From contig JBBRLQ010000023.1 in NCBI GenBank assembly GCA_038231275.1, positions 1 to 64,000 of the forward strand: a stretch of 64,000 nt of DNA. The letters are read 5' to 3'. This document shows, in pieces, positions 21,129 to 29,342 of this stretch. Below the pieces are notes generated by a model that made no database searches, was not told the origin of the DNA, and was given only the letters and a program-made list of their open reading frames with translations. Position 1 is the first letter of the stretch, and each line of letters starts with the position of its first letter. The position numbers and the translations under genes are program-made. The DNA is from Polyangiales bacterium. GTDB taxonomy: Bacteria > Myxococcota_A > Polyangia > Polyangiales > Polyangiaceae.

Positions 21129-21182
21129 CTACCCCAAAACTTGAGGCTAGGAAACCTCGCCGATCTGCGGTTTAAAACCCAC

Positions 21183-21941
21183 ATGGCCCGTCTACCCCGA
21201 AACATTCTCCTTCTCGCGATTATTGCCTTCCTCGGCACCCTGATTGCGCTCGGCTGCGGCGGGCCGAAGTACCCGAGCTGCGACAACGACGATCATTGCA
21301 ACGCGGAAGGGCTCCCCGCGAGCCACGGCCGCTTCTGCATCAACCACATCTGCCAGCAGTGCCGAAAGGCGAGCGACTGCGTCGCCGGCGAGGAGTGCAA
21401 CGCCGGCGCGTGCATGGTGGTCAAAGGCTACTGCGACGACAGCCACGCCTGCGAAGGCGGCGGCGAGTGCGGCAAGGATCACAAGTGTAGCCCGACGAAG
21501 GTGGCGTCGAAGGCGCCGGTCGAGTGCGACGACGAGCACGCGTGCAAGGGACCCGGCGAGAAATGCCAGAACGGTCACTGCGTCGCGCCGCCCAGCGGCG
21601 GACCTGGCTGCACGGATTTCCCCGCGCCCAAGTTCGACTACGAATCGCCGTCGCTCCGGCCCGAATCGAAGGAGGTGCTCCAGCGCCTCGTCAACTGCAT
21701 CTCGAACGGCACGCTCAAGGGTCGGAAGGTGCTGCTCACCGGGCACTGCGACGCGCGCGGCGAGTACGAGTTCAACATGGGCCTCGGCGCCGAGCGCGCG
21801 GAGGGTGTGAAGAACTTCCTCATCGGCCTCGGCCTCTCGGCGAGCGCGCTCAGCACGTCGTCGCGCGGCAAGCTCGACGCGAACGGCGCGGACGAGGGCG
21901 GCTGGGCCAACGATCGCCGCGTCGACATCGAGGTCCGCTGA
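21183..21941 (+). CDS. pal: Pal/OmpA-family peptidoglycan-associated lipoprotein with Cys-rich N-terminus
   Basis: Lipobox ALGC; FDYES, GHCDARGEYEFNMGLGAERA, SRG, NDRRVD; a cpoB-like gene follows. Confidence 0.85.
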   Translation: MARLPRNILLLAIIAFLGTLIALGCGGPKYPSCDNDDHCNAEGLPASHGRFCINHICQQCRKASDCVAGEECNAGACMVVKGYCDDSHACEGGGECGKDHKCSPTKVASKAPVECDDEHACKGPGEKCQNGHCVAPPSGGPGCTDFPAPKFDYESPSLRPESKEVLQRLVNCISNGTLKGRKVLLTGHCDARGEYEFNMGLGAERAEGVKNFLIGLGLSASALSTSSRGKLDANGADEGGWANDRRVDIEVR

Positions 21942-22762
21942 TGCGAACGGGCGCGTCGTCGGTTGCGGTCGTCGCGCTCGCGGCGGCCCTGGTGCTCGGG
22001 AGCGGGTGCGGGCTATTCGCGACGCAGAAGGACTACGACACCCTCGCGCAGAAGCACTCGCAGGTCGAGAAGAGCCTCGAGGAGGAGCGCGCGCAGACCG
22101 TGCAGCTTCGCGCCGATCTCGACGCGACGCGCACGCGCCTCGACAACGCGCTCCGCGCGAACGCCGACAACGGGTCGGATTTGATGACGTCGAAGGCGCG
22201 CATCAACGACATGGCGGGTCGCGTCGACGAGCTCACCCACAGCCTCGACGCGGTCGGCAAAGACGTCGCCGCGTCGCGCCGCGAGCTCGACGCGCGCCTC
22301 GACGAGCTGAAGCGCGCGCAGCCCGTCGCGCCTCCCCCGCCGCCGGTCGTCATTCCGACCGACAAAAAGGCCCATTTTCAGGCGCTCGAAGCGGCGACGG
22401 CGAAGAAGGATTGGGGTCTGGTCCGCACGCTCGGCCACGAGTACGCCGATCGCTACCCGATGGACGACCAGACCGACTCGGCGCTCTACCTCATCGGCGA
22501 CGGGGACTTGCAGGAGGGCCGGCCCTCGAGCGCGCTCGGCGAGTACAACCGAATCTTGAAGCAGTTTCCGCGGTCGAACATCCTCGACAAGACGCTCTAC
22601 GGGATGGGCGAGGCGTACCTCGTCCTCCACGACTGCGTGAACGCGAAGCTGGCGTTTTCGGCGTGCGAGTCGCGCTTCGGCAAGGCCAAGATCGGCCAGG
22701 ACGCAAAGAAGCGCGTTCAGCAGATCGAGAAGCCGCCGCCCGGCATGTGCGCCCCGCCCTGA
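21941..22762 (+). CDS. cpoB: CpoB/YbgF-like coiled-coil plus TPR lipoprotein
   Basis: Lipobox GSGC, coiled coil, TPR (ALYLIG..QFPRS..TLYGMG); ATG overlaps the pal stop. Confidence 0.75.
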   Translation: MRTGASSVAVVALAAALVLGSGCGLFATQKDYDTLAQKHSQVEKSLEEERAQTVQLRADLDATRTRLDNALRANADNGSDLMTSKARINDMAGRVDELTHSLDAVGKDVAASRRELDARLDELKRAQPVAPPPPPVVIPTDKKAHFQALEAATAKKDWGLVRTLGHEYADRYPMDDQTDSALYLIGDGDLQEGRPSSALGEYNRILKQFPRSNILDKTLYGMGEAYLVLHDCVNAKLAFSACESRFGKAKIGQDAKKRVQQIEKPPPGMCAPP

Positions 22763-22776
22763 CGTATCCTCTGCTC

Positions 22777-24222
22777 ATGCCGGCGATGGGCAACGCGGGA
22801 GGTGTCTTCGGAGTGTGCGAGGCGTGTCAGGCGCCGCGCTCCGAGCAGGACATGATCTGCGCGCGGTGCGGCTACCACTTCAAGACGAAGCCGGTGCCCG
22901 CGTTTCCTTCGGACGGGGCGCCGACGCGGCGAACGGATCCGCCTCTCATCGTCGAGTCGCCACGCACCGTGCTCATGCCGGCGTCCGCGCCGCTGCCGCC
23001 GCCGACTCAACCGGTCGCGGTCCCGCCGACGATGCAGAGCGCGGGGGCTTCGCCGGAGTCGGCGCCGCGCACGCTCCATAGCCCGAGCTCTCCGCCTGGC
23101 CACGATCGCCCTGTGGTGCCGGTGGGGAACTGGACGCCGCCTCCGCCGCCGCCCCGGAGCGCCCCGTCACGTCGTTCGTCGGCCGCGCCGTGGGTCCTGG
23201 GGATCGTCGGCGTCATTGTCCTTGCGTCGGCGGCGGTGCTCTTCGTGGCGCTTCGGCACGGGGTGCCGTCCTCGCCGCTCGTCGCGCGGACGGTGTACTT
23301 CGAATCGGGCGGGGAGGTCTCGTTCGGGCACCTCGACACGTCGCCCGCGGAGGACTTCGTCGGGCGCTATTACGAGCTCGAGGGGACGGCGATGGCGTTC
23401 TACGTCGGCGCGTTCTCGGGCGACGATTTCCACGAGATTTGGCGCACCGGTCCCGTCGATCTGCGCGCGGCGGGCGGCCCGTTGCCGTTCGCGGTCGTCG
23501 GATCGCGGGTGCTCGTCGCCGACGTTCGCCCGCTCCTCCACGTCCACGACGGCGCCACCGGGCACGAGACCCACCAGGTCGAGCTGGCCGATCGCGCGAC
23601 GCGCATCGTCGTTCACGGCGACAAAGAGGCGTTCATCGAGGTCGCGGGGGGAAAGCACGTGCTCTACGACGCGGCGCTCGGGCGCGCGAAGATCACGCCG
23701 CCGCCTGCGTGGGTACCGCCGCTGCCGTCCGCTCACCACTGCGGCCTCGCGCAGGGCTCACGGAGCACGTGCCTCGAGGACGCGCGCACCAGCCGCATCG
23801 CCGCGTTTTCGAGCAAGCGCGCGATCGGCGCCGGCGATCTCGGTGTGGCCCTCGGCCGCACGACGGCGTCCCCTTCGCTCCGCGTCGTCGGGTTCTCGCT
23901 GTCGAGCGGCGCGGAGCTCTGGCGCACGCCCGTGTGCTTGGACCCGCACTACACGCCGAGCGACGAGGAGACGCTCGAGCTCGACGGCGACGCCGCGTTC
24001 GCCACGTGGGGTGACGCCGCGACCCCGCACGTCGTCGCGTTCTCCACGAAGGATGGAGCTCGACGTTGGGAGTCGGAGCCGCTGCCCACGCTCCAGGTCC
24101 CGTTCGCGCCGCGCGTCCTCGTGGTGTCGCCCACGCGCGTCTACGTTCCTCGCGCGACGAGCCTCAGCGTCCTCGATCGCGCGACAGGCAAAATCCTCGG
24201 CGGTGTCGGCGCGACGAAGTGA
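22777..24222 (+). CDS. Zinc-ribbon, Pro-rich, TM, PQQ-like beta-propeller protein
   Basis: CEAC-x10-CARC, Pro-rich linker, one TM helix, G-x-x-L-W blade motifs. Confidence 0.7.
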   Translation: MPAMGNAGGVFGVCEACQAPRSEQDMICARCGYHFKTKPVPAFPSDGAPTRRTDPPLIVESPRTVLMPASAPLPPPTQPVAVPPTMQSAGASPESAPRTLHSPSSPPGHDRPVVPVGNWTPPPPPPRSAPSRRSSAAPWVLGIVGVIVLASAAVLFVALRHGVPSSPLVARTVYFESGGEVSFGHLDTSPAEDFVGRYYELEGTAMAFYVGAFSGDDFHEIWRTGPVDLRAAGGPLPFAVVGSRVLVADVRPLLHVHDGATGHETHQVELADRATRIVVHGDKEAFIEVAGGKHVLYDAALGRAKITPPPAWVPPLPSAHHCGLAQGSRSTCLEDARTSRIAAFSSKRAIGAGDLGVALGRTTASPSLRVVGFSLSSGAELWRTPVCLDPHYTPSDEETLELDGDAAFATWGDAATPHVVAFSTKDGARRWESEPLPTLQVPFAPRVLVVSPTRVYVPRATSLSVLDRATGKILGGVGATK

Positions 24223-24229
24223 CGCCGCG

Positions 24230-24736
24230 TCAGGGAGCCTTTTGGGTGAGCGCGCCGAGAAAGTCGCGCTTGCCAAGGCTGACGCCCGCGTGACGTAGGA
24301 GCGCGTACGTGTGCGTCGTGTGGAAGAAGAAGTTCGGCACGGCGTGCTCGAGGAAGTAGTCGGCGCCGGTCATCGTCTTGCCTTCCCAGCGCGGCTGCGT
24401 GACGACGCGCGTGGCCGCGCCCTCGAAGTCCTTCGCGGTCAACGTGTCGAGGTGCGCGATGATGCTCTTCACACGCGCGCGAAGCTCGTCGAGCGTCTGC
24501 TCGGTGTCGGGGTGCGAGGGGGCCTCCTTGCCGGTGAGGCGCGCGGCGGCGACCTTGGCGGTGTCGCTCGCGACCTGCACCTGACGGGCGAGCGCGAACT
24601 GATCCGGTGCGAGGCGCAGCGTGAGAAATACGTTGGGGTCGAAGCCCTTGGTCTGCGCGTGCGCGGCGGCGGCGCCGAGCCATCCCTCGAGCTGGCCGAG
24701 GGTCTTCTTCATCTGGCGGAAAAATTCGTAGTACAT
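24230..24736 (-). CDS. DUF1993 (DinB-like) protein
   Basis: RLAPDQFALARQVQ and PNFFFHTTHTYALLRHAGVSLGKRDF motifs. Confidence 0.9.
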   Translation of the reverse strand: MYYEFFRQMKKTLGQLEGWLGAAAAHAQTKGFDPNVFLTLRLAPDQFALARQVQVASDTAKVAAARLTGKEAPSHPDTEQTLDELRARVKSIIAHLDTLTAKDFEGAATRVVTQPRWEGKTMTGADYFLEHAVPNFFFHTTHTYALLRHAGVSLGKRDFLGALTQKAP

Positions 24737-25557
24737 GCCGCGGAGGGTACACAGATTCGCGGGCCCGTCGACGCTCGCGGCCCCAGAAATGTGACGAGGA
24801 GCGCCGCCATCACGAGGCCCATCACGTCGGGGCGCGCGCCGAGCTCGAATGAAACGTGCAAAATGCACGCAAATAGGGCCCCAAATCTGCGCGTTTTCGT
24901 GAAGAGAAGCAGCGCGGGCAGCGCCGCTTCGGCCAGGAAGATGCACCACGCAGAGGCCGTCGCGAGCGCGGGCTGCGTGAGGAGGAGCGACGTCGCAGGG
25001 GCGGTGAGGAGCCCGTCGCCGGCGAGCGCGCGGAGCGTGTCGCCCGAGAGCCACTCCGGCTGCGCCTTCGCGAGCGCCGACCACGCGTAGACCGACGCGA
25101 CGAAAAGATGCACGAGGCGCGCGCTCGACGCGGCGCCGACACGTTGGTCGGGGACGAGGGCGAGATCGCTCGTGGCGTCGGTCAGCGCGAGGACGATCGT
25201 GCCGAGAAAGAGCGTGTGCAGCGTGAAGACGAAGCCGAACGGATCTTGCGACAGCGCGACGAAGCCGCACGCACCGGCCACGAGCCCGGCGACGCGCGCG
25301 CGGACGCCGAGGAGGAAGAGGACCGCGGCGACGGTTCGAACGACGCACGCGGCGATGCGGACGCCGTCGGGCAACGTGAGGCCGTCCCACGCGAAGGGCC
25401 AGCCGGGCTCGGGCCATCCGTAGAGAGGCCCGTTCACGGCGGCGAGGGGAAACGCGCGCGCGAAGGGGGCGACGTTGACGAGCGGCGTCGTCCGCAGCAG
25501 GAACACCACGCCGAGCGCGACGCGCGCGATGGGCAGGGGGCGCTTCAGCGTGAGCAC
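24709..25557 (-). CDS. HTTM-domain membrane protein (vitamin K-dependent carboxylase/SdpB-like)
   Basis: GGAG plus GTG start; LFLLGVRAR, VYAWSALAKAQPEWLSG, EAALPALL..TRR..LH motifs. Confidence 0.8.
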   Translation of the reverse strand: MLTLKRPLPIARVALGVVFLLRTTPLVNVAPFARAFPLAAVNGPLYGWPEPGWPFAWDGLTLPDGVRIAACVVRTVAAVLFLLGVRARVAGLVAGACGFVALSQDPFGFVFTLHTLFLGTIVLALTDATSDLALVPDQRVGAASSARLVHLFVASVYAWSALAKAQPEWLSGDTLRALAGDGLLTAPATSLLLTQPALATASAWCIFLAEAALPALLLFTKTRRFGALFACILHVSFELGARPDVMGLVMAALLVTFLGPRASTGPRICVPSAACTTNFSAR

Positions 25558-25940
25558 GTGATCTCCGCGCGCGTCGTGCGAGGCTCGCCGCGCCCAGGAC
25601 GCTCTTCGAGGACGACGGTGACGGCGGCCGAGCGTCCTTCGTCGGCGGCGCACGCGAGGCGGGCGACCTCGGGCAGGCGAACGCGCAGCGCGCGAACGTC
25701 GTACGTGCGGCGGAGGTTGTCGGCGCCGGCGAAGAACGGCTGCGCGGATCGTCCGACGCGGGAGGCGAGGAGCGTCGGTGCGATCGCGTGACGCCGGCCC
25801 GCGCCGTCGCTCCCGTCGATCACGACGCGGTACGAGACGCTCGAGGCGTACATCGTGAACGCGAGGCCGGCGTCGCCGAGCGCCCCGACGAGCGGCAGCG
25901 AGACGACGAACGCGGCGGCGAGGTGATGAACGCGCGTCAC
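25545..25940 (-). CDS. Small exported partner of the HTTM protein
   Basis: N-terminal hydrophobic segment, FTMYAS motif, Cys pair; overlaps the HTTM start by 13 nt. Confidence 0.65.
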   Translation of the reverse strand: MTRVHHLAAAFVVSLPLVGALGDAGLAFTMYASSVSYRVVIDGSDGAGRRHAIAPTLLASRVGRSAQPFFAGADNLRRTYDVRALRVRLPEVARLACAADEGRSAAVTVVLEERPGRGEPRTTRAEITCSR

Positions 25941-26032
25941 GCGATCATCCTAGGCCTGAAATTCCCCATGATTGGGCACCTTCGCGGAATCGGCCGACGG
26001 ATGCCGGCGACCCCGGCCATAGTCGATACGTC

Positions 26033-26530
26033 GTGACCCATTTCCGCCGCTACGCGCCCAGGCAACGCGCCTCGATTTCCGTGATCATGGTCTGCGCCGT
26101 CGGCGTCGCGTCGACCGTCGCGGTCTCCGTGATCCTCGTCGCGTGCGGCCGCGTCGACGACGGGACCTCTTCTTCCGCGGACAGCGGCAGCGACGGCACG
26201 TTCACGAAGCCCATCGGCACACCGGACGCCACCGGCTGGACGGAACCGCCGTGGGACGCGCTCGCCGTCGACGTCGCGGTCGGCCCTGACACCGGCGCGC
26301 CCCCCGACGGCGGCCCGCCACCCGTGATCGCGTGCGGCGCGGACGCCGCGATCCCATGCCCGCTCCCGCCGTCGGTGTGCGTCGACGATCACTGGCTCCG
26401 CTACTACTACGGCGGCACGTGCGGCGACGCCGGCGTGTGCGTCTACCAGGTCGGCGAGTACGCGTGCCCACCGTCGCCGGTCCAGCCCGACTGTCTCGAC
26501 GGCGGGTGCCGCATCGTCATCGTCCGCTGA
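26033..26530 (+). CDS. Cys-rich lipoprotein with Asp-rich linker
   Basis: Lipobox LVAC; eight-Cys C-terminal domain. Start may be ATG 26087. Confidence 0.7.
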   Translation: MTHFRRYAPRQRASISVIMVCAVGVASTVAVSVILVACGRVDDGTSSSADSGSDGTFTKPIGTPDATGWTEPPWDALAVDVAVGPDTGAPPDGGPPPVIACGADAAIPCPLPPSVCVDDHWLRYYYGGTCGDAGVCVYQVGEYACPPSPVQPDCLDGGCRIVIVR

Positions 26531-26534
26531 GTCA

Positions 26535-26595
26535 GTGGAGCGAAGCGCAGCGGAGCGAAACGCTCCTGAGTGGAGCGAAGCGAAGCGAAGCGCAG
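26535..26595 (+). repeat. REP-like element copy 4 (26535-26566) plus tandem partial copy 5 (26570-26595)
   Basis: Same 32-mer, then TGA, then GTGGAGCGAAGCGAAGCGAAGCGCAG. Confidence 0.88.
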
Positions 26596-26636
26596 GGCGA
26601 TGGGACCGAAATCGCCGACGCGTGCTGCGCCGACGC

Positions 26637-29267
<2,631 letters not shown>

Positions 29268-29342
29268 GAGGGCGAAGGTGCCGTACGTTCGCAATTTCGG
29301 ACAAGTTTTCGAGCGTTCTCATTTACCGTCGAAGTTCGACCG

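Follow-up and report, generated by a model that had tools for sequence, protein, structure and literature searches.

A small membrane-anchored protein and an eight-helix HTTM protein as a predicted two-chain relative of vitamin K-dependent carboxylase beside a cysteine-rich lipoprotein in a Polyangiales bacterium

The window analyzed here, a 64,000-nucleotide stretch from a Polyangiales bacterium (contig JBBRLQ010000023.1), contains a gene for a small protein that runs into a gene for an HTTM membrane protein, and a lipoprotein gene that is transcribed divergently from both (Table 1). The GC3 values of the three ORFs (0.84, 0.88 and 0.92, the small ORF having 0.88) are all coding-like, and the GC3 frame passes from that of the small ORF to that of the HTTM ORF at approximately 25540–25580. 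The most likely start of the HTTM gene is GTG 25557 behind a GGAG, giving 282 aa, which is also the length of the window's own HTTM protein record (P0001). With this start, the overlap with the small gene is 13 nt (25545–25557), and the overlap of about 109 nt that followed from taking the whole ORF (24709–25653) in a preliminary description of this DNA has to be corrected. The position of the GGAG inside the small gene suggests translational coupling of the HTTM gene. The sequence features on which that description was built are present: VYAWSALAKAQPEWLSG, FTLHTLFL and ILHVSF all lie in the minus-strand ORF at 24709–25653, and AFTMYAS follows a hydrophobic helix in the minus-strand ORF at 25545–25940. 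The divergent intergenic region presumably holds the promoters of both flanking genes; a scan of 24100–26700 returned no sigma-70 consensus-like sites, and three terminator-like sites against 1.2 expected, none of them usefully placed. A DUF1993 gene (24230–24736) was considered as a fourth member of the cluster and rejected, as it is missing from all related clusters.

Table 1 Genes and features of the locus, in window coordinates.
Feature	Position	Strand	Details
HTTM-only membrane protein gene (putative membrane subunit)	24709..25557	-	282 aa; GTG 25557; stop 24709-24711
Small-protein gene (putative small subunit)	25545..25940	-	131 aa; GTG start; TGA stop at 25545-25547
RBS-like GGAG	25563..25566	-	in the last part of the small gene, 5 nt ahead of the HTTM GTG; read from sequence
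Divergent intergenic region, small gene/lipoprotein gene	25941..26086	.	146 bp
Lipoprotein gene	26087..26530	+	147 aa (P0230); ATG 26087, the most likely start

The small gene and the HTTM gene travel together. Among 15 loci with close HTTM relatives, found via HTTM alignment, a small-family ORF lies upstream in 14, and the 15th locus is cut off; when the small protein was taken as the starting point, all five matches have an HTTM gene directly downstream. Both searches together, checked for duplicates, give 17 distinct loci; in all 17 the small gene stands immediately upstream of an HTTM gene, and the small family was found in no other position. The two genes form a conserved unit, as had been expected of them. 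Its gene order had been called swapped with respect to GGCX, the human vitamin K-dependent carboxylase; the small gene does come first, but this is not unusual, as a DUF5819 gene in another HTTM locus (L032) and sdpA before sdpB are arranged alike.

The HTTM chain has the fold of the GGCX membrane core. Pfam HTTM (PF05090) covers only residues 179–268 of the 314-aa ORF, at 33.6 bits against a cut-off of 27.7, and is precomputed on most of 73 HTTM relatives; NCBIfam returned no match at E ≤ 1 for either the HTTM or the small protein. A profile built from 22 HTTM relatives and searched against PDB sequences reaches GGCX at E = 5.2e-5, aligning K164 with K218, W169 with W223, E210 with D263 and H234 with H287, and all four residues are invariant in the 22 sequences. 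The correspondence of the catalytic Lys and His proposed in the preliminary description is thereby borne out, and the GGCX strings that it quoted are real, human GGCX containing VYFIAGVKKLDADW, WNNHSYLYG and GYSWDMMVHS. The structural model of the chain (pLDDT 86.6) matches 9wfc_A with Z 18.9 and rmsd 5.8 over 247 aligned residues, model residues 4–270 corresponding to GGCX 59–326, and 9bvq_A with Z 17.8 and rmsd 3.7 over 239 aligned residues, the next unrelated entries scoring Z 10.9 or less. The chain thus comprises the first eight of the nine GGCX helices and extends no further than the position of GGCX residue 326; the 73 relatives, at 198–306 aa, are similarly short, in agreement with the earlier remark that the protein stops after the membrane core. 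A phmmer search of an HTTM paralogue (L021) against PDB gave a low-complexity match only.

The positions that hold CO2 and Glu in GGCX agree less well. F299, on which CO2 stacks in GGCX, corresponds to M246, a position occupied by M, L, F or I across the 22-sequence family. Of the Glu-binding residues N159, H160 and Y395, N159 is probably not kept, falling on L113, and H160 falls on H114 (His or Tyr in the family), both assignments being made by motif spacing, with NNHSYL laid over TLHTLF, rather than by residue-level structural alignment. No counterpart of Y395, which is probably also not kept, was identified in the small chain. As F299 is replaced and N159 probably is as well, it is a guess that this enzyme carboxylates Asp or Glu.

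The small protein consists of an N-terminal membrane helix (approximately residues 3–22), a juxtamembrane motif, SLPLVGALGDAGLAFTMYASS, with Met30, and an alpha/beta domain of about 100 aa that contains Cys97 and Cys129. Its family, which Pfam does not cover, comprises 193 or more sequence clusters (counted as cluster representatives at E ≤ 0.001), and the protein itself has eight close homologues. In an alignment of 95 members, M30 and C97 are the sole invariant residues, and P16, R38, L89 and C129 are conserved in at least 90%. Of 109 full-length representatives, 88 carry an LP...A[FWY]xM[YF] motif. Gene callers frequently cut members of this family short at the invariant Met. A 292-aa record (P0192) that appeared to be a fusion of the small domain with the start of an HTTM protein was not counted, as it has neither the helix nor the last Cys and its end is out of frame. 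The fold of the domain has no clear relative: Pfam and NCBIfam give no match for the protein, the profile of 95 family members has no match among PDB sequences at E ≤ 10, and the structural model (pLDDT 83.4) finds nothing in PDB by Foldseek at E ≤ 0.001. A VIA-align search of the model against 48,161 chains likewise gave no clear fold and did not list GGCX, the best match being dihydroneopterin aldolase-like (Z 5.0, rmsd 3.1, 75 aligned residues), and the nearest ESM Atlas clusters are unnamed and come from Myxococcota and Actinomycetota.

What the HTTM chain is missing relative to GGCX suggests what the small chain may be. GGCX is described as having nine helices and a loop, LL9, that covers the vitamin K pocket, with Met401 of this loop stacking on the vitamin K ring and binding K218 through its backbone (PMC12647623). 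In a fused bacterial GGCX-like protein (L010), which aligns to human GGCX residues 47–505 at E = 4.9e-29, the stretch ALPL...FSWRVMV sits on LFLPY...YSWDMMV of the human enzyme, and SLPL...AFTMYA of the small protein stands at the same place after its membrane helix. Other split partners carry the motifs FSWSMFAG, AFGFRMFSES and ASFSMFTE. The small protein therefore looks like a trans-encoded helix 9 and LL9 lid (the YSWDMM region) joined to a small unrelated domain, with a Met-bearing motif after a membrane helix and on the outer face as in human GGCX. Profile–profile comparison (hhalign) gave no significant bridge from the small family to GGCX: the probability was 0.1% against the C-terminal part of L010, 1.8% against four fused forms, 6.6% against the fused C-terminal part of L021, 17.5% against the L012 partner and 0.1% against the DUF5819-like partner of L009. 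As there is no significant homology to GGCX or to the fused forms, the equivalence with helix 9 and LL9 rests on motif, topology and predicted interface. The comparison with the partners of longer HTTM paralogues (L020-type) reached 78–80% (E = 1.3e-5 to 1.8e-5), which makes a distant link between these two families possible at the level of sequence profiles. In the preliminary description the small gene was thought to supply the missing C-terminal domain in trans; supply of a missing piece is plausible, but the piece looks helix 9/LL9-like and is not the large lumenal clamp domains of GGCX, and the similarity to the GGCX clamp domains or to SdpA that was envisaged is undetectable in profile and structure searches.

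The predicted complex of the pair is consistent with this assignment. Co-folding of the HTTM and small proteins, which had been suggested as a check, scored 0.78 against 0.01 for the best control and supports binding; a score of 0.78 is attained by 116 of 157 solved complexes and by 2 of 215 mismatched pairs, and may here partly reflect likeness to solved GGCX. At least 91% of contacts are shared between runs, and the partner pLDDT is 82 or higher. In the model, the membrane helix of the small chain packs into the HTTM bundle and its motif lies on Lys164 and Trp169, the interface being formed by small-chain residues 1–16 and 27–34 and HTTM residues 140–169 and 173–183.

The lipoprotein begins with a signal peptide and lipobox (LVAC/G), followed by a linker rich in Asp, Ser, Gly and Pro. 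Its mature part of 128 aa contains 15 Asp, 2 Glu and 9 Cys, so the earlier label of an Asp/Cys-rich protein is correct. The C-terminal domain of about 65 aa has seven invariant Cys, a near-invariant acidic residue and the motif C-PLPPSxCxD. In an alignment of this domain, S19 and D23 are conserved in at least 90% of sequences, Glu replacing D23 in one exception, and this Asp is the sole conserved acidic residue of the domain. Of 15 clusters that could be judged, 12 combine the pair with a lipoprotein that has the Cys domain. Its gene is arranged in three different ways and is mostly transcribed divergently; the lipoprotein is a conserved neighbour of the pair and a candidate substrate or third component. 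With this lipoprotein as query, a single copy is found in its own genome. The domain also occurs away from HTTM genes, with two more copies in another genome (G014) and weaker repeats in large proteins. In two genomes with the pair, G024 and G026, the Cys-domain profile has no match anywhere at E ≤ 0.001; the cluster of G024 carries a diverged 9-Cys lipoprotein.

Relatives of this arrangement have been described. DUF5819 (PF19136) and HTTM pairs are proposed as a split bacterial GGCX-like complex in a 2026 preprint (bioRxiv 10.64898/2026.08.19.745780), so that the concept of a split small partner and HTTM protein is already in print there. As in our pair, the small DUF5819 partner has an N-terminal membrane helix and an outer domain, its gene adjoins that of the HTTM protein (in L032 it lies upstream with an overlap of 4 nt), and the preprint describes a predicted complex in which the partner makes contact with the quinone pocket. 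In our pair the partner is shorter, however, at 131 aa against approximately 190–240 aa, its motif is AFTMYA where W-x-LFAPEP stands in the two partners of DUF5819 type seen, no DCC1-like domain is attached to the HTTM chain, and a cysteine-rich lipoprotein is linked. The DUF5819 profile finds no protein in the same genome at E ≤ 1 and none of the 95 small-family members at E ≤ 10, and hhalign of the small family against the L032 DUF5819 protein gives a probability of 0.4%. With respect to human GGCX, the likeness lies in the fold of helices 1–8 and in the retention of K218, W223, D263 (as Glu) and H287, whereas the enzyme here would be of two chains, with the gene of the helix-9/LL9-like piece first, has no clamp A/B or C-terminal domains, has an LP-to-motif loop about five residues shorter, and comes with no Gla-type substrate or propeptide. 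In our literature search, no publication came up that deals with the small family, with its linkage to the lipoprotein or with HTTM proteins in Myxococcota.

We give about an even chance to the reading that the pair is a two-subunit, GGCX/HTTM-type enzyme of the inner membrane, in which the small chain provides helix 9 and the lid, menaquinol is the cofactor and the lipoprotein is the best target. The HTTM chain would form an eight-helix quinone-binding core, in which K164, held by W169 beside E210, would be the base that deprotonates the quinol. The small protein would add the ninth membrane helix, close Met30 of its AFTMYA motif over the quinol pocket much as Met401 of LL9 does in human GGCX, and expose on the periplasmic side a small domain that is probably disulfide-bonded. 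MenA is encoded in the genome (194 bits, cut-off 102), and the cofactor would therefore be menaquinol; a VKOR homologue is present as well, whereas MqnA, of the futalosine route, has no match. Menaquinol and O2 would generate a strong base that deprotonates a residue in an exported protein, which could lead to carboxylation or to some other base-driven change. The best candidate target would be the lipoprotein's 7-Cys domain, perhaps at its conserved Asp. The helix 9/LL9 role of the small chain, the cofactor, the substrate and the chemistry are all our inferences. MloH of malonomycin biosynthesis is another bacterial GGCX relative and is described as acting on Asp rather than Glu (bioRxiv 10.64898/2026.08.19.745780). 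MloH is described as a fusion of HTTM and partner-like regions; it carboxylates an aspartyl unit, its substrate being a polyketide-peptide intermediate.

Three other readings each appear improbable to us. In the first, the pair would be a quinone-linked thiol oxidase or isomerase (DsbB/VKOR- or MauE/DoxX-like) that forms or corrects the disulfides of the 7-Cys lipoprotein domain and modifies no side chain. The linked protein is indeed cysteine-rich with an odd number (seven) of invariant Cys, two Cys are conserved in the small subunit, a DCC1-like thiol-disulfide oxidoreductase domain is found fused to other HTTM proteins (L032; bioRxiv 10.64898/2026.08.19.745780), and MauE matches the same HTTM stretch weakly (18.7 bits, E = 0.0022). 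That score is, however, under the cut-off of 27, the HTTM chain has no invariant Cys in the 22-sequence alignment, its invariant residues are those of the GGCX quinol-deprotonation site, and the genome has a separate VKOR homologue of its own.

A second reading with similarly low odds takes the lipoprotein as a precursor that the pair processes, modifies or releases as a secreted Cys-rich peptide, for example an antimicrobial, in the manner of SDP or linaridin maturation. The Bacillus subtilis sdpABC cluster has the same three parts, a small protein, an HTTM protein and an exported protein, and yields a secreted peptide toxin, SdpAB being described as maturing the exported product SdpC (PMC6818787). 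Linaridin clusters are reported to contain HTTM genes (PMC9927463), and the L032 operon combines a glycine-zipper protein with DUF5819 and HTTM-DCC proteins. A copper monooxygenase-like gene (Cu2_monoox_C), of the peptide-modifying kind, adjoins the cluster at three loci and in one of them (L027) lies inside the operon. Against this, no SdpA, SdpB or DUF5819 profile matches, SdpA (PF17418) finding neither the small protein nor its family; the related clusters have no conserved immunity, transporter or protease genes; and the third gene, mostly divergent, encodes a 7-Cys lipoprotein with a folded-looking domain rather than a hydrophobic peptide.

The third reading, to which we likewise assign a small probability, makes the lipoprotein an accessory component, either a substrate recruiter that replaces the clamps or a regulator, with the real substrates encoded elsewhere. 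It would account for three loci (L005, L016 and L037) in which the pair has no Cys-domain gene nearby, and it fits a short enzyme that has no counterpart of the propeptide-binding clamps of GGCX, as well as the two loci (L027 and L029) in which the lipoprotein gene lies within the operon, between the small and HTTM genes. However, the lipoprotein, with its single small domain on a linker that is long, flexible and acidic, resembles a tethered substrate more than it does a docking module. That the small ORF is a mere neighbour or a substrate and the HTTM protein acts alone, as might be argued from the lack of a clear fold match and of a significant family link to known partners, is highly improbable given the strict pairing with its 13-nt overlap, the co-fold score of 0.78 against 0.01 for a model in which the small chain's membrane helix packs into the HTTM bundle, and an HTTM chain without the helix 9 and LL9 that are part of the active site in GGCX.

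To our knowledge, MloH is the only bacterial relative of vitamin K carboxylase with an assigned function, no chemistry being known for SdpAB or for the HTTM proteins of linaridin clusters. The module described here is unusually small and self-contained: to a core of eight helices it adds a putative lid subunit of 131 aa with one invariant Met and, in most clusters, a lipoprotein of a single domain, which is an obvious candidate target for mass-spectrometric examination. A test is practical, as Labilithrix luteola DSM 27648 (L026), which is in culture and has a completely sequenced genome, also carries the module. The boldest form of our proposal is a minimal two-chain, menaquinone-dependent enzyme of the Polyangia periplasm that would carboxylate, or alter by other base chemistry, the one conserved Asp in the 7-Cys domain of the lipoprotein. 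It would make this the first GGCX-type enzyme of bacteria to have a protein substrate assigned by genetic linkage, but we consider it doubtful. If it is true, the small chain would show that the ninth helix of GGCX and its LL9 lid are a separable module, fused to the core in the animal enzyme.

The small gene and the HTTM gene, which encodes a relative of the membrane domain of the human vitamin-K-dependent carboxylase GGCX, overlap by 13 nt on the minus strand, and 146 bp separate the lipoprotein gene on the plus strand from the pair. The HTTM reading frame is open already from 25653 in this window of about 70% G+C; we place its start at GTG 25557 because the third-position G+C signal passes from the small-gene frame to the HTTM frame at about 25540–25580, the window's own protein record (P0001) is 282 aa long, and a GGAG lies 5 nt ahead of this GTG. 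Every sequence string quoted in the preliminary description was recovered in the window ORFs. A DUF1993 gene on the same strand overlaps the HTTM gene, its start lying 28 nt ahead of the HTTM stop; the overlapped HTTM tail is not conserved, and the DUF1993 gene is absent from all related clusters. The kinase and BamB-like genes flank the cluster elsewhere only in a genome of the same genus (L002/L023).

Genes of the pair and their neighbours in the window.
Feature	Position	Strand	Product
OmpA-family protein	21141–21941	plus	Cys-rich
Coiled-coil protein	21941–22762	plus	
BamB-like PQQ_2 protein	about 22780–24222	plus	
DUF1993 gene	24230–24736	minus	168 aa, Pfam E 2.1e-51
HTTM gene	24709–25557	minus	282 aa, GTG start
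Small gene	25545–25940	minus	131 aa
Lipoprotein gene	start ATG 26087	plus	147 aa (P0230)
Ser/Thr kinase	26637–29294 region	minus	885 aa, two kinase domains

Surveying from the HTTM side identified a close relative at 15 distinct loci (the window, L002, which is identical to L023, L003–L007 and L024–L031), and a small-family ORF lies upstream on the same strand in 14 of them; at L030, the fifteenth, upstream DNA is limited to 393 bases. From the other side, a sample of 401 genomes from the phylum contained the small protein in five, each with an HTTM gene directly downstream. Two more distant pairs (L016 and L037) have the same layout, and the distinct pair loci, checked for duplicates, number 17 in all. 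The module is rare and found mostly in the window's own family, where 3 of 29 other sampled genomes carry it.

The Pfam HTTM match (33.6 bits, above the cut-off) is restricted to the second half of the HTTM protein, which has 73 relatives of 198–306 aa, one of them from Labilithrix luteola. A profile of 22 relatives matches human GGCX (E 5.2e-5), and in the profile alignment the invariant residues K164, W169, E210 and H234 align with GGCX K218, W223, D263 and H287, respectively, while GGCX F299 aligns with M246. An AlphaFold model of the chain (pLDDT 86.6) matches GGCX best in chain 9wfc_A (Z 18.9, rmsd 5.8, 247 aligned) and also in 9bvq_A (Z 17.8, rmsd 3.7, 239 aligned), with model residues 4–270 corresponding to GGCX 59–326 and the first unrelated chain following at Z 10.9. 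GGCX is described as having nine membrane helices, with vitamin K bound among helices 5–8 and covered by a cap and by LL9, a conserved loop on the lumenal side; Met401 of LL9 is stacked on the vitamin K ring and binds K218 through its backbone, the Glu substrate is held by Y395 of LL9 together with N159 and H160, and CO2 is held by F299 (PMC12647623). The HTTM chain is equivalent to GGCX helices 1–8 with the quinol site intact and lacks helix 9, LL9 and the lumenal domains; its carboxylation half differs from that of GGCX at F299 at least.

Co-folding of the small chain with the HTTM chain scored 0.78 (0.78, 0.80 and 0.78 across runs), and the best-scoring of three controls 0.01; the runs share at least 91% of contacts with a partner pLDDT of at least 82. 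Among solved complexes 116 of 157 attain this mark, and among mismatched pairs 2 of 215 do; these counts apply only roughly because our own alignments served as input, and the pass may partly reflect likeness to solved GGCX. In the predicted interface, the helix of the small chain (residues 1–16) packs on HTTM 118–160, motif residues 27–34 lie on HTTM 163–169 and 173–183, K164 and W169 included, and the remaining domain sits on the outer loops 50–55 and 105–109. We estimate the probability that the two chains form a complex at about 0.85.

The small protein has no match in Pfam or NCBIfam. A word-based search returned 8 homologues, and searching 1.84 billion representatives with a profile returned 193 at E ≤ 0.001, nearly all of 100–150 aa, with 147 at E ≤ 1e-10. 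None of 17 sampled or 95 aligned members matches DUF5819 or SdpA, the small partners described for other HTTM proteins; 19 Pfam families are each matched by at most three members (best E 0.0059), and six-frame searches of the organism's own genome with SdpA and DUF5819 gave nothing at E ≤ 1. In the 95-sequence alignment invariance is confined to M30 and C97, with P16, R38, L89 and C129 conserved in at least 90%. The model (pLDDT 83.4) shows a long N-terminal helix followed by a compact alpha/beta domain, for which structure searches found no clear relative. About 21 of the 150 representatives listed, among the 193, start exactly at the invariant motif Met (profile position 33), and in this family the true start, and with it the membrane helix, is apparently often missed by gene callers.

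L010, a full-length bacterial GGCX-like protein (526-aa frame) encoded in a related genome, aligns to human GGCX 47–505 (E 4.9e-29), placing the GGCX stretch EQLFLPY...NGLYGYSWDMMVHSR, which holds P378, Y395, W399 and M401, over VALPL...QGMRFSWRVMVRAK of L010. The small protein reads SLPLVGALGDAGLAFTMYASS, with LP at the helix end and an aromatic-x-Met-aromatic motif about 12 residues on. Partners of other split HTTM genes carry FSWSMFAG (L012), AFGFRMFSES (L008, L015, L018 and L020), ASFSMFTE (L016) or, in the DUF5819-type L009 and L032, W-x-LFAPEP. We infer that P16, F28 and M30 correspond to P378, W399 and M401. Profile comparisons gave the correspondence to GGCX no significance, with probabilities for the small family of 0.1% against L010, 1.8% against four fused forms, 0.4% against DUF5819 and 17.5% against the L012 partner; the L020-type partner family, at 78–80% (hhalign), was the sole comparison that high. 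No resemblance to the GGCX clamps was detectable in the ~100-aa domain. We lean towards the small chain being the equivalent of GGCX helix 9 and LL9.

Other HTTM arrangements occur in the same and related genomes. The second split pair of the organism (L020, G000:C6:181520-185290), of a type also found at L008, L015 and L018, consists of a longer HTTM protein (435-aa frame, Pfam 75 bits) and, encoded immediately ahead of it, a ~145-aa protein with a helix and the AFGFRMFSES motif. A third HTTM paralogue (L021, G000:C6:140822-144577) is apparently fused, with an HTTM core, a Ser/Glu/Gly-rich linker, a further hydrophobic helix, QSYPFACYPTFEH and a ~100-aa domain; its fused part does not resemble the small family significantly (probability 6.6%). 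The sole DUF5819 match among 301 sampled genomes of the phylum (L032, G168:C60:9194-12667) lies in one operon encoding an exported glycine-zipper protein of 136 aa, the DUF5819 protein (240 aa, 50 bits) and a 422-aa HTTM protein with a DCC1-like domain, the last two genes overlapping by 4 nt. Full-length GGCX-like proteins in related genomes (L010, L011, L013 and L019; 458–526-aa frames with FSWRVMV-type motifs) are each encoded directly after a gene, and the products of these upstream genes end alike; the one at L010 is an imelysin (Peptidase_M75, E 1.8e-26), and imelysin with the GGCX-like protein looks like a conserved pair.

The mature lipoprotein (128 residues) contains 15 Asp, 2 Glu and 9 Cys, and its last ~65 residues make up a domain in which seven Cys are invariant and one Ser and one Asp nearly so; in the single sequence that lacks the Asp, Glu takes its place. 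A gene for this domain is present in 12 of the 15 pair clusters with enough flanking DNA, a count that leaves out L031 and L034. It is divergent from the pair in eight (the window, L002, L003, L004, L007, L024, L025 and L026, the L007 match being a weak one, E 0.019, to a protein that has a lipobox and 9 Cys), on the same strand and upstream of it in two (L006 and L028), and between the small and HTTM genes in two (L027, with two domain copies, and L029); it is missing near the L005, L016 and L037 pairs. The whole genomes G024 and G026 gave no match to the profile of this Cys domain at E ≤ 0.001. A search with the lipoprotein itself finds a single copy of the domain in the organism's own genome. 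The domain is also found away from HTTM genes: G014 has two more such copies, and some large proteins contain weaker tandem repeats of it. A gene for the C-terminal domain of copper type II ascorbate-dependent monooxygenases adjoins or lies inside the L006, L027 and L029 clusters (E 1.5e-6 to 1.3e-13), at L027 between the lipoprotein and HTTM genes; the organism has 12 genes of this kind, all of them outside the window's contig. The pair clusters have no further gene in common.

HTTM genes are reported as part of sdpABC (PMC6818787) and in linaridin clusters (PMC9927463), and an August 2026 preprint describes DUF5819 with HTTM as a predicted split GGCX-like complex of which MloH is the fused form (bioRxiv 10.64898/2026.08.19.745780). 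The window module follows the same principle as the DUF5819 complex; compared with the known split HTTM systems, however, its partner family is unnamed and smaller, its HTTM chain carries no extra domains, and it has a linked 7-Cys lipoprotein. The organism encodes MenA (194 bits against a cut-off of 102) as well as a VKOR homologue, and its genome gave no MqnA match. The half of the active site responsible for quinol deprotonation and oxygenation is conserved and the half for binding Glu and CO2 appears not to be, which points to a two-chain menaquinol enzyme making a base and leaves carboxylation an unlikely chemistry for the pair. The lipoprotein is a tentative candidate substrate. The two-chain enzyme would use menaquinol to generate a base on the periplasmic face of the inner membrane, with the lipoprotein domain as its most likely target.
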